A stretch of 64,000 nt of DNA, from positions 62,498,001 to 62,562,000 of the forward strand of contig NC_086097.1 in assembly GCF_963921235.1 (NCBI RefSeq), read 5' to 3'. Both the position numbers and the translations under genes were made by a program. Of this stretch, positions 56,492 through 59,289 are shown piece by piece. Positions within the stretch are counted from its first letter, which is position 1, and each line of letters opens with the position of its first letter. This DNA is from Mobula hypostoma (lineage: Eukaryota). Under the pieces are notes generated by a model that had not been told where the DNA came from, did no database searches, and saw only the letters and a list, made by a program, of their open reading frames with translations.

Positions 56492-57376
56492 ACTAGCTTC
56501 CCCTGTCATCTGTTGTGGAGAAATTCAAGGTGGCAAAATGCAAAGCCTTATTAATCTTGAGAGATTCCAATGATATCGTGGTAAAGCAAGCAGGCATTAC
56601 AACCAGATCTGGGTGCAAGTGGGCAGCCAACGCAGCTGTGGAGGAGGCAGTGTCTTCTCTGAAGCTGCGAGATATCATTGACAACCCCTGTGTCGGGCAG
56701 CAAGGCCTCGGCTCAGTTCACCTCCAGCAGTGGGGAAATGCAAGCATAAGGAACAGGCGAGACATGGTACAGGCAGAAGTACGGATCCGTGAGGAAGAGA
56801 AGCGGATGTCTAAGACAGTGGGAGATGAGGGTCAATGTGGGAAGGAGGTTGCAGTTCCCGGATGTGGTGCACACAACCCTACGCCCGGTCATTGTACTTG
56901 GTCAACCAAAGACAAGAAAATAATTCTGGTTGAGCTGACTGTGCCGTGGGAGGAGGGATGGGAAGAGGCCCATGAGAGAAAGGCCTTGAAGTACCAGCCC
57001 TTACTGCAGGAGTGTAAAGACAAGGGACGGCAGGTATGGTTGTTCCCTGTGGAGATCGGCTGCAGAGGTTTCCCAGCCAAATCAGCATGGCGGTTGTTGT
57101 CAGATCTGGGCCTGGACGAAAGGAGCAAAAAACAATCAGCTCGTAGGATGGGGGAAGAGGCAGAACGAGCCTCTTGTTGGATTTGGAGTAGGCGAGAAGA
57201 GGGGAGCTGGAAGCCAGGAGCAGATGGGCAGTGATTTGGCCACCACTGCCGGCCCACTAACTGGAGAGTGTCGTGGTTAAGGGTCGAAACACTCTGTGAA
57301 GGTTGGGAACCACTTGATGACATCTGCTCCTGGCTGAAGGCTACGGTTCCCTTATTAGGTAACTGGAGAATGCATC
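56492..57376 (+). mobile_element. HERO-clade (R2-superfamily, RLE endonuclease) non-LTR retrotransposon 3' part, internally deleted
   Basis: ORF 56515-57234: EKFKVAK..LRDSND..RSGCKW..GLG and the restriction-like endonuclease WST..KIILVELTVPWEE..AHERKALKY..FPVEIGCRGF; the RPDIV motif is present in a shifted frame at about 56880; possible TSD ctaaca. Confidence 0.85.
57257..57325 (+). ncRNA. Candidate non-circularly permuted hammerhead ribozyme in the HERO 3' UTR
   Basis: AGAGUG-UC / GAAA-CACUCU (stem III), GUGGUU / AACCAC-UUGAUGA (stem I plus core) and GGGUC / CAUCU (imperfect stem II), in crossed order. Confidence 0.55.
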
Positions 57377-59289
57377 CTAACAGGTGTATGTAACAAGTCT
57401 CTCCCTGATATGTACCCATTGGCTAGATGCATTTTTCCTCAGCTTGGCCTCACTACAGAGATATTCCCTTCATCACATCCATCCTTCTAAATTAACCCTG
57501 CAACTTAATACTACTGTGTTCACCTGGAGCAGTCTCATGTTTTCCTTTCCACAGATACTGCCTGACCTATGGGATACTTACAGCACTTTCTGCTTTGATT
57601 TTAGAGATCCAGCATCTATTGCTCATTTGATTTGCATATAATTGTTCACTTTCCCTATTAAGTAGTTTACAATGACAATCATGTCATCTTAAAAGGATAC
57701 TTACACTGTTAATTATTATTCTATTCTATTCTTTGATTAAATGAATTATAATTGTTTGCATAGAAATTAAGCTACTCATAAAGAATACAACAAGGTTAAG
57801 GTGGGAAGACACCTTTTTATAGTTAATGCTAACATATTGACCTACAGTTCACAAGGTTTCCCCTCCTTTCCTTTCCAGAAGTTTCTGACAGAATTGCAAC
57901 TTTGATCACACTGTTCACAATCTCTCACCAAATAGAGGTTATTAGCTTTAGCTAAGATAGCACTGCTTCCTGGTTATCAAAAAGGGCAAATAAACATAGC
58001 GGTTGACATTTTAAATATTAGATACAAATATTGTCATGATCATAACATTTGCTTTTCATAAATTAGAATGAAAACAGATTCAAATTGCCTTTGAAGATTT
58101 TATTCAAATAATTGTTAAAATTCCAATCTACTTACTCTACCTCTTACCTAAAGTTAACACACAGTTCACATTCTTCAAAGTGTCCAACTTTGATCTCCAG
58201 GGTCAACTTTATCTTTCCCTCCTGCTCATTTAGGAACTTTTCATCTGCCTTTGAAAGGCACTGTCATTAAACACAGTGGTGTGTTGCAAGGTGTATTCAG
58301 ATTCAAATTGCAGTCGGCTCAGTTTTGCAGAAGTCAGCAACAAAATGAAAGTGCTACAGTCAGATGCTTTTTGTGACAGTTCAGTTTGATCTCATCTGTT
58401 TCTAGTCAAGAAGTAACTACAAAGGTTGGAATTATTGGCAGAAGATAAATTCCCAGGGAACTTCATTTGCAAGAGTAATTAGACAATATTTTGTTTTTCT
58501 GGGACATACCCTTGTTGCTCAATGTAAGTCTTGGATCTATCCCTCCCTGTTTAACCAAATGCTTTTAGAGGTATTTGAACCTGTTACTTAAAGACAAGGG
58601 TTTTTGCGAAGTTACAATCTTTCTTTATTTTGTCAAAATTGTCATTGAAGTTGTAAGCATTAAAAAATTTCATCCGTTATGGTTTAGTATTATGACTGTT
58701 TTATTTAACAGATAACCTGAGTAGAATATTCAGAAGTCGGAACAATTTGCCTCAGTTTAGTAGGATATATTTGCCTGCATCTTTATTAATCATACATTCA
58801 GCTGAAATATGAGTGCTTTAATGTTTCAACTGAAAAATAAATGACCACAGAGAGGATATTAAACACAGATGTTTCATTTTACTGAATTGCAGGGATAACT
58901 GATCCACTATAGCTGACTTGTGACATTTAGGCAAATATAAAGTACTTGTTTTTTTTAAATAAAACAAACTCAGTCTTGTAATCACAAATAAATGATTCCT
59001 TGATTCCCCTAGCAATCATTGAAGCAATGGTGGCAAATGAAGATAACAGCACTAGTAATCTCAATGATATGCTCCTATTAAAATTGTTTTATCCAAATTA
59101 TGCATGCCAGCATTTAATTTCCCATAATATGCTCACTATTAGACCAGGATTAAATAATTTATTCTTTAATTTGTTTGAATTTTTTTCCATAGCCATACAG
59201 CTGTGAATGCCATTATTGGAGACAGACCTAGTTAATCTGTGCTGACTATCCAGCATCCATTTACACTCATATTTTACTGTTCTAATTTT

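Follow-up and report, generated by a model that had tools for sequence, protein, structure and literature searches.

In a stretch of 64,000 nucleotides (nt) of the Mobula hypostoma genome (RefSeq assembly GCF_963921235.1, contig NC_086097.1, positions 62,498,001 to 62,562,000; called the window below, with positions counted from its first letter), the end of the open reading frame (ORF) of a retrotransposon copy and the adjoining 3' untranslated region (UTR) were found to hold what is very probably a real, selected domain of the hammerhead ribozyme type in permuted order (57213-57334). An earlier note, made from the letters of the window, had placed a rearranged hammerhead-like ribozyme at 57257-57325. 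It is well supported that 57213-57334 is a dead copy of a 122-nt structured RNA domain that begins in the last codons and runs through the stop codon into the 3' UTR, of which it takes in the first 100 nt, and that this domain holds a complete predicted hammerhead core: U16.1-H17, G12-A14 with A15.1, and C3-A9. The explanation favoured overall is that of a permuted hammerhead domain whose intact copies would cleave themselves, a proposition judged to stand at about even chances.

The hammerhead core and its conservation

Direct inspection of 57257-57325 gave exact agreement with the coordinates in the earlier note. The letters AGAGUG+UC were found at 57265-72, GUGGUU at 57273-78, AA between 57278 and 57281, GGGUC+GAAA+CACUCU at 57281-95, AACCAC at 57308-13, UUGAUGA at 57314-20 and CAUCU at 57321-25, with CUAACU (57257-62) opposite GGUUGG (57301-06). 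Stems I and III adjoin the hammerhead core without a gap, and the motif begins 22 nt 3' of the stop codon (ORF end at 57234), close to the 20 nt previously given. With every block in place, all parts of a hammerhead are present in a non-circular order, namely cleavage-site block, GAAA block, CUGANGA block (S-G-C). This order, which fits none of types I, II and III, is the one that Eckert, Friedrich, Weinberg & Weinberg (2023; PMC10085705) named type SGC, a non-circular hammerhead permutation. The equivalence with type SGC drawn here, including that of its bridging helix, is with the text and the construct oligonucleotides of that paper. The features of the domain and its host element are as follows.

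56497-57234, plus strand: C-terminal ORF fragment of the retrotransposon, a dead copy, from the ORF call; stop codon at 57232-34
57213-57226, plus strand: 5' strand of the closing helix Pa, in the last codons of the ORF; pairs with 57321-57334
57227-57250, plus strand: hairpin Pb (57227-33 with 57244-50); includes the stop codon; no spacer separates it from Pa or from stem II
57251-57255, plus strand: proposed 5' strand of stem II (10.1-10.5), putatively so labelled; pairs with 57281-85
57257-57262, plus strand: 5' strand of helix P1; pairs with 57301-06
57263-57265, plus strand: non-bulged strand of a kink-turn (k-turn)-like loop, G(3n) G(2n) A(1n), assigned by sequence match only
57266-57271, plus strand: 5' strand of stem III (16.6-16.1); pairs with 57289-94, U57271-A57289 being 16.1-15.1
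57272-57273, plus strand: predicted cleavage site, between H17 (57272) and G1.1 (57273)
57273-57278, plus strand: 5' strand of stem I; pairs with 57308-13
57281-57289, plus strand: 3' strand of stem II, GGGUC (11.5-11.1), followed by G12 A13 A14 A15.1
57295-57300, plus strand: bulged strand of the k-turn-like loop, L1-L3 at 57295-97 and G1b A2b A3b at 57298-300
57301-57313, plus strand: 3' strand of P1 (57301-06), spacer G57307 and 3' strand of stem I (57308-13), from letters and conservation
57314-57320, plus strand: CUGANGA box, C3-A9, UUGAUGA in the window copy
57321-57334, plus strand: 3' strand of Pa, its first five bases being the CAUCU of the earlier note
57335-57398, plus strand: 3' tail of the element, with a hairpin (57345-52 with 57357-64) that is mutated in the window copy; the element ends near 57398

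The host element was characterised from longer copies. The window copy has lost its 5' part and, internally, about 480 bp; in other copies, the stretches that match residues 1-112 and 127-245 of its ORF are separate and lie about 480 bp apart. A longer copy was found to encode RVT_1 (Pfam, E = 4e-15) with a weak zf-RVT match, and a CCHC motif (CX2C..HX4C) and a C-terminus of the PD..E..K type were read by eye in its translation. The element is a retrotransposon without long terminal repeats (non-LTR) and with a reverse transcriptase (RT) and a restriction-like endonuclease (RLE), of R2-superfamily architecture, and RVT_1, CCHC and PD..E..K in the longer copy bear out the placing of the motif in the 3' UTR of such an element. 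Its full-length unit is about 3.73-3.74 kb. It is very abundant in the 3.48-Gb genome: first-look searches returned at least 1445 DNA candidates for the UTR and at least 12028 protein candidates, and the 22-mer that follows the predicted cut site occurs at exactly 534 genomic places.

The published RNAMotif descriptor of type SGC (supplement of PMC10085705) was re-implemented with any base allowed at 10.1. On both strands of the window, the form with a strict CUGANGA gave no matches, and the form with position 3 relaxed to Y gave exactly one, which was this site. In a natural intact copy (L071), all elements of the descriptor were present except the G after CUGAUGA; the published descriptors hhead-SGC and hhead-SGC-noU failed, with C following CUGAUGA where G or UG is required. 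The chance rate of the loosest form was estimated by Monte Carlo simulation at 5.9e-10 per position, corresponding to 7.6e-5 matches per 64 kb and to about 4 per 3.48-Gb genome. For stems as long as those observed, the simulation gave no matches, and an analytic estimate was about 6e-12 per position.

Conservation was assessed on 80 rows from family A, the main family, and 18 rows from family B, without de-duplication (at least L011/L038 and L021/L061 are the same copies). Because the sampled copies of family A are about 89-97% identical to one another, they say little on conservation. Divergent relatives with A at 57272 were found in contigs of four public runs. A diagnostic 17-mer carrying that A had 101 exact matches in the genome and no control matches, and the 20 of these matches that were fetched and aligned represent an older family B, whose identity to family A is about 80-85% as judged by eye. 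Of the 16 loci returned when metagenomes were scanned with an 18-mer, 14 were chance matches and two were relatives: L109, which is B-like, and L112, which represents a lineage C and lies on a metagenome contig. The C-terminal protein stretch of L112 is 59% identical to the family-A protein over 80 amino acids. Lineage C was not detectable in this genome (one match with a mismatch versus 2-3 control matches), and a search for further lineages in viral and prokaryote collections gave no matches.

All 11 invariant core bases (C3 U4 G5 A6 G8 A9 G12 A13 A14 A15.1 U16.1) were found unchanged across family A, family B, L109 and L112, which confirms the predicted conservation of the hammerhead core across copies and lineages. 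The sole core changes are at N7 (U, C, U and U, respectively) and at H17 (C, A, A and U). Directly 3' of the stem I strand stands the CUGANGA box, with CUGACGA as its family-B form and CUGAUGA in family A as well as in L112. No lineage of the four has changed the GAAA at 57286-89 or U57271, which forms the A15.1-U16.1 pair. At position 17, family A has C (73/80), family B (18/18) and L109 have A, L112 has U and none has G, so that the cleavage triplet NUH takes the forms GUC, GUA (family B and L109) and GUU. This pattern, with changes at N7 and H17 alone and no G at 17, is that which a working hammerhead would be expected to show. At C3, C was found in 26 of 30 copies, in 77 of the 80 family-A rows and in 15 of the 18 family-B rows, and the U of the window copy is private to it.

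The most divergent comparison was used to gauge constraint. Between L112 and family A, 60 of 69 positions are identical within 57257-57325 (87%), 153 of 240 in the coding sequence (64%) and 35-39 of 73 in 57326-57398 (about 50%); Fisher's test gave p = 1.9e-4 for the motif versus the coding sequence and p = 4e-6 for the motif versus the rest of the UTR. Therefore, the motif is under stronger constraint than the neighbouring protein.

Most decay of the motif in copies was seen at CpG dinucleotides, which occupy 57272/57273, 57285/57286 and, in family B, 57318/57319. The forms of decay are GUC-G to GUU-G or GUC-A, UCGAAA to UUGAAA or UCAAAA, and CUGACGA to CUGACAA or CUGAUGA. Because positions 17 and 11.1 lie in such dinucleotides, the U found at both in the single L112 copy may be decay and not the state of the lineage.

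It is extremely unlikely that the resemblance is due to chance, that is, that an ordinary structured UTR happens to contain CUGAUGA, GAAA and UC beside two helices. The motifs are short, very many windows (about 250,000) were scanned, and the covariation statistics are weak when the closing helix is left out of the model, as described below. Against these points stand the expectation of 7.6e-5 per window for even the loosest descriptor, a core that three lineages have retained with only its two free positions altered, the greater conservation of the motif than of the coding sequence, and an independent stem II with a G10.1-C11.1 pair at the place that the geometry needs.

Predicted pairing and topology of the domain

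Helices were tested on 8 sequences, with cells counted as base pairs times sequences (40 for a five-pair helix, 320 for the whole model). The pairing of GGGUC with CAUCU, which had been taken for stem II, was not upheld: its first pair (10.1/11.1) forms in none of the 8 sequences, being C.C or C.U, 29 of 40 cells are paired, and the duplex energy is -1.0 kcal/mol. CAUCU pairs within the closing helix Pa instead. The sequence CAUCUGCUCC (57321-30) is perfectly complementary to 57217-26, which lies within the ORF's last codons, and L112 changes both strands with complementarity kept. RNAalifold, run blind, predicted a Pa of 14 pairs (57213-26 with 57321-34), four of which are changed on both sides in lineage C; the inner 10 pairs show three double changes, with 93.8% of cells paired. 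The hairpin Pb (7 pairs, 98.2% of cells, one G-C/G-U change) was predicted by RNAalifold too.

A partner for GGGUC was found upstream, at 57251-55, which read GGCCC in the window and in family A and GACCC in family B and L112. Here 39 of 40 cells are paired, three of the five pairs change on one side and stay paired, the duplex energy is -8.3/-8.5 kcal/mol, and RNAalifold predicts the helix as well. The first pair, G57251-C57285 (10.1-11.1), is G-C in 5/8 sequences and G-U in 3/8, with G10.1 separate from A9. We infer that stem II is formed by 57251-55 with 57281-85 and has the canonical G10.1-C11.1 pair. The earlier note had suspected the window copy of being dead for two reasons. U in place of C3 was confirmed, and the C-C mismatch caveat falls away because the upstream stem II starts with G-C. 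The window copy of the element is dead, given the change of C3 to U, the 5' truncation, the internal deletion and the mutated 3' hairpin, and its hammerhead domain, carrying C3-to-U, is probably inactive.

These results bear on the exact model proposed before, a plain type-SGC hammerhead at 57257-57325 whose stem II is GGGUC with CAUCU and contains a C-C mismatch. This model agrees with the published descriptor except at G10.1, four of its five stem II positions can pair in families A and B, and a register shift by one base in L112 gives four Watson-Crick pairs (-5.8 kcal/mol). The strand following A9 is, however, part of the 14-bp helix with 57213-26 and its four compensatory changes, and the uninterrupted C block of type SGC is absent. 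In addition, A57322-to-C in L112 breaks a pair in the register of that model, its first pair and its 29 of 40 cells compare poorly with the upstream partner, and so does its energy (-1.0 versus -8.3 kcal/mol). It is therefore rated very improbable. Another helix, GGUUGGG with CCUGGCU, was tried as a bridge between stems I and II and rejected: U57331-to-A in L112 breaks it, and pairing in Pa explains the change. A small hairpin, 57331-35 with 57339-43, competes with the outer pairs of Pa.

The helices beside the core proved almost invariant. Stem I was found as proposed, with 57273-78 pairing to 57308-13 over 6 bp at the core (-6.1 kcal/mol); its five inner pairs are the same in all lineages, and the outer pair differs from lineage to lineage (A-U, C.U or G.U). 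Stem III consists of six pairs with 100% of cells paired; five never vary, and one changes from G-C to G-U in a single decayed family-B copy. The perfect 7-bp stem III of the earlier note thus stands for six pairs, whereas the seventh, A57265-U57295, more likely belongs to the k-turn-like loop. Stems I and III together have 90-100% of cells paired and no compensatory change between lineages, and stem II shows one-sided changes only.

The extension of stem III past an internal loop (CCAACU/GGUUGG) was confirmed as helix P1, which is paired in 100% of cells; in L109, A-U is replaced by G-C and U-G by C-G, which amounts to one compensatory pair. A single nucleotide links P1 to the 5' strand of stem II, and another links it to the 3' strand of stem I; P1 would be the counterpart of the type-SGC helix that forms a bridge between the far ends of these two stems.

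The loop between P1 and stem III appears to have the sequence of a standard k-turn. Its pairs would be G.A (57298.57265), A.G (57299.57264) and, at 3b.3n, A.G (57300.57263), with 57266-71 and 57289-94 as the C helix. Positions 57263-65 are kept in 79/80, 75/80 and 80/80 family-A rows and in 17-18/18 family-B rows. L1-L3 are the columns that vary between lineages (G/U/A, G/A and U/A), and GAA at 57298-300 is invariant. Huang & Lilley (2016; PMC5061560) report A.G at 3b.3n to be the best-folding k-turn combination.

When the whole model including Pa was scored, 96.9% of the 320 cells were paired; three double changes were matched by 14/500 shuffles and the covariation score by 6/500.

In the topology proposed for this fold, the RNA chain would enter the core at G10.1 and leave it after A9. 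The flanks would pair as the 14-bp Pa, and Pa and Pb could stack on each other, making a perfect four-way junction at the A9/G10.1 step. P1 would join the far ends of stems I and II through its 1-nt linkers, a kink at the k-turn-like loop would fold it back toward these ends, and its end, the 1-nt linkers and the AA linker could close a second three-way junction. In strand order, the domain would be a type-SGC hammerhead circularly permuted and opened inside the 'C block'. Natural hammerheads commonly have one base more between A9 and G10.1 (PMC4209133), and the type-SGC descriptor of PMC10085705 provides for it too, so that this step appears to tolerate interruption.

It is tentatively proposed that this represents a new hammerhead topology: type SGC opened at A9/G10.1, with a four-way junction over the end of the ORF, braced by a k-turn, active, possibly gated by the ribosome, and used by an RLE lineage of cartilaginous fish. 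The domain is related in architecture to the type-SGC class, whose descriptor it fails, and most likely carries a further rearrangement.

Possible self-cleavage and a non-catalytic alternative

Intact copies would cleave themselves between the equivalents of 57272 and 57273 by the ordinary hammerhead transesterification. Judged from the sequence, the prospect that such cleavage is detectable is roughly evenly balanced. After the cut, about 31 base pairs would still hold the two halves together. A ribosome in the act of translation would unfold the domain, given the overlap of Pa and Pb with the stop codon and the codons before it, and folding may thus be gated by ribosomes.

The genomic arrangement of the element suggests a use for a cut. 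Head-to-tail tandems, in which the 5' UTR of the next copy follows directly after the 3' end, are frequent and, among the loci examined, were found in 8 (7 distinct copies), besides L112; the places are L062:1236-5605, L063 (reverse strand), L002, L009, L011/L038, L048, L072 and L112:430-618. Both full-length copies examined follow a 5'-truncated copy, of 79 nt and of at least 640 nt. Template jumping of reverse transcriptase is a possible source of head-to-tail copies. The 3' UTR is always kept in the 5'-truncated upstream copy, and a ribozyme there could free the downstream copy from read-through RNA. Speculatively, then, the cut would process read-through transcripts of tandem copies, as is thought for Penelope-like elements; an alternative, equally speculative role would be the separation of the coding part from the 3' tail.

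A number of observations weigh against this explanation or the fold on which it is built. With respect to the fold, the invariance of stems I and III between lineages leaves no covariation signal in them, and such strict conservation of sequence exceeds what a ribozyme needs and fits recognition by a protein. The compensatory changes in Pa come from L112 alone. Most family-B copies, and L112 too, have U at position 11.1 and hence a G.U pair, which may be CpG decay. Without the closing helix, 130/500 shuffles scored as high as the model, and covariation was not significant. The nested minimum free energy of a natural copy was no better than that of shuffles (z = -0.23), and in the nested RNAalifold solution the upstream stem II is lengthened by pairs in competition with P1 and stem I; these pairs could represent an alternative, inactive conformer. 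An Rfam scan of 56800-57800 at E <= 10 lent no support, returning no hammerhead and only weak unrelated matches, as expected because the form is permuted. To our knowledge, a hammerhead interrupted between A9 and G10.1 has never been shown to be active.

With respect to cleavage, the 24 public runs consist of assembled contigs, which are unable to show RNA ends. Among the 534 genomic places, no pile-up of copies starting at 57273 was found: in 2/534, all four upstream bases were unlike the element, and neither is a clean 5' end, one copy having lost 3 nt across the site and the other (L120) having an internal deletion. None of the 40 best matches to 57273-57398 starts at the site, and 38 of them continue upstream. 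Had the 5' end of the next copy been made by the cut, tandem junctions would be expected to show a 126-nt leader; none of those seen does.

Several individual cases around the site were recorded. In L120 (C12:159431400-159431800), a family-B copy, an internal deletion of about 2 kb joins the RT-coding region to the equivalent of 57273 with 2-3 bases of microhomology; this single case could be a trace left when reverse transcription ran off the end of a cleaved template and jumped. The count of copies with unlike upstream bases, repeated at control positions 10 nt on either side of the cut, gave 0 and 0, a comparison of no weight, with anchor totals uncounted and a different power for small deletions. 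The two remaining copies among the 40 best matches, L072 and L082, are 5'-truncated and begin 7 and 4 nt upstream of the predicted cut, possibly where reverse transcriptase stops at the folded domain. Two contigs starting at 57273 and 57274 (X2 record 15 and X9 record 32) were considered as cleavage ends and rejected because assemblies break beside variable sites and 57272 is polymorphic between families.

As the main alternative, it is possible, if short of probable, that the domain is non-catalytic, either hammerhead-derived or an attenuated former ribozyme, and kept for binding a protein. The protein could be the RT, bound for target-primed reverse transcription, RNA stability or cis-preference, or a host k-turn binder of the L7Ae/SNU13 family. 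Besides the invariance of stems I and III, such a role is suited by the place of the domain beside the stop codon, which would favour co-translational capture, and by the k-turn-like loop, a typical protein-binding site (PMC5061560). Moreover, a cut would part the ORF from the 3' end needed for copying, and fossils of cleaved templates were not seen to pile up. R2 proteins recognise a structured 3' UTR element, pseudoknotted in birds, in the account of R2Tg taken from PMC12222951. That RT-binding element is, however, the 3'-terminal 67 nt of the UTR and has no hammerhead core, whereas the present domain ends 64 nt before the 3' end, and the terminal 64 nt are separate and diverge fast. The divergence of the tail (35-39/73) is what would be expected of an RT-specific site, yet the hammerhead part is fixed despite a protein that is 59% identical. 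Retention of all 11 catalytic bases, with core changes at N7 and H17 only and no G at 17, also argues for the catalytic explanation over a purely binding role.

Relation to known systems and other observations

The closest relatives described are HRIMA-1 and the other type-SGC variants (PMC10085705). The present domain shares with them the S-G-C order with a pseudoknotted core, a stem I of 5-6 bp, a stem II of 5 bp, a linker of 2-3 nt from stem I to stem II, and a helix bridging the far ends of stems I and II, for which P1 is the presumed equivalent. The distance of 13 bases between H17 and GAAA is that of the SGC-2 construct, by our own reading of its oligonucleotides. It differs in the 5' strand of stem II, most likely placed upstream of all else instead of following CUGANGA, in the 14-bp closing helix with its hairpin and the k-turn-like loop between stem III and the bridging helix, and in the failure of the descriptor at the G after CUGAUGA. 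Here the motif is known from its sequence, in a vertebrate retrotransposon; the examples in that paper all come from IMG/M metatranscriptome contigs.

A hammerhead core in a retroelement is likewise found in Penelope-like elements and retrozymes, which carry minimal type-I hammerheads in terminal repeats (Cervera & de la Pena 2014, PMC4209133) and also often show partial head-to-tail tandems with a ribozyme upstream of a full-length copy. Those elements belong to the GIY-YIG Penelope class, in contrast to the RT+RLE non-LTR element studied here, and their hammerheads are minimal and dimeric, not permuted, monomeric, long-stemmed and placed over the ORF end and 3' UTR.

Ribozymes similar to that of hepatitis delta virus (HDV) occur at the 5' ends of R2 and other non-LTR retrotransposons. 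These are also self-cleaving RNAs tied to R2-superfamily elements and to the processing of co-transcripts; they are of another ribozyme class and lie at the opposite end of the element. An Rfam search at E <= 0.1 of three near-full-length copies (L061, L062 and L063) found no HDV-like, twister or other ribozyme anywhere, the 5' end included.

The k-turn-like loop has the same C helix, 3-nt bulge, G.A/A.G pairs and 3b.3n A.G as the standard simple k-turns Kt-7 and that of the SAM-I riboswitch, as these are described by Huang & Lilley (2016; PMC5061560). The presumed job is also similar, namely folding a helix back so that a loop reaches a distant partner, with the difference that the present loop is assigned from letters and their conservation pattern. 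We know of no k-turn described in a hammerhead.

A full-text literature search for 'type-SGC' returned Eckert et al. (2023) alone; a search combining HERO, the family to which the earlier note assigned the element, with hammerhead ribozyme and non-LTR found no paper, and in a hammerhead/retrotransposon/shark-skate search the term 'hammerhead ribozyme' was absent among the matches listed. Non-circularly permuted hammerheads are known from one study, on metatranscriptome contigs of unknown hosts only. With a conserved example that occurs hundreds to thousands of times in a vertebrate genome, the class would gain a host and a genetic setting. Should the upstream stem II be correct, a hammerhead could do without a join between stem II and the CUGANGA box; current searches with descriptors or covariance models presuppose that join, and further forms may then have been missed. 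Self-cleavage would also place a ribozyme where the ORF of an R2-superfamily element meets the 3' UTR; the ribozymes known from such elements are 5' ones only.

Some features outside the domain were also observed. On the minus strand at 57407-57480, just past the element, there are matches resembling box C/D snoRNAs (snoU30, 18.5 bits; sR2, 17.6 bits), which are far under the gathering scores and probably due to chance. At L061:3962-5639, 5' of a retrotransposon copy, there is a long tandem repeat whose unit measures about 33 bp (11 residues in ORF translations); it lies beyond the end of the homology of that copy to other full-length copies; ORFs through the repeat are artefacts. At the place of the tail hairpin, L112 has a hairpin of unlike sequence. 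Copies of the element diverge after ..GTAACAAG, near 57398, without a poly(A), and in several copies the terminal heptamer is doubled, forming a short 3' microsatellite.

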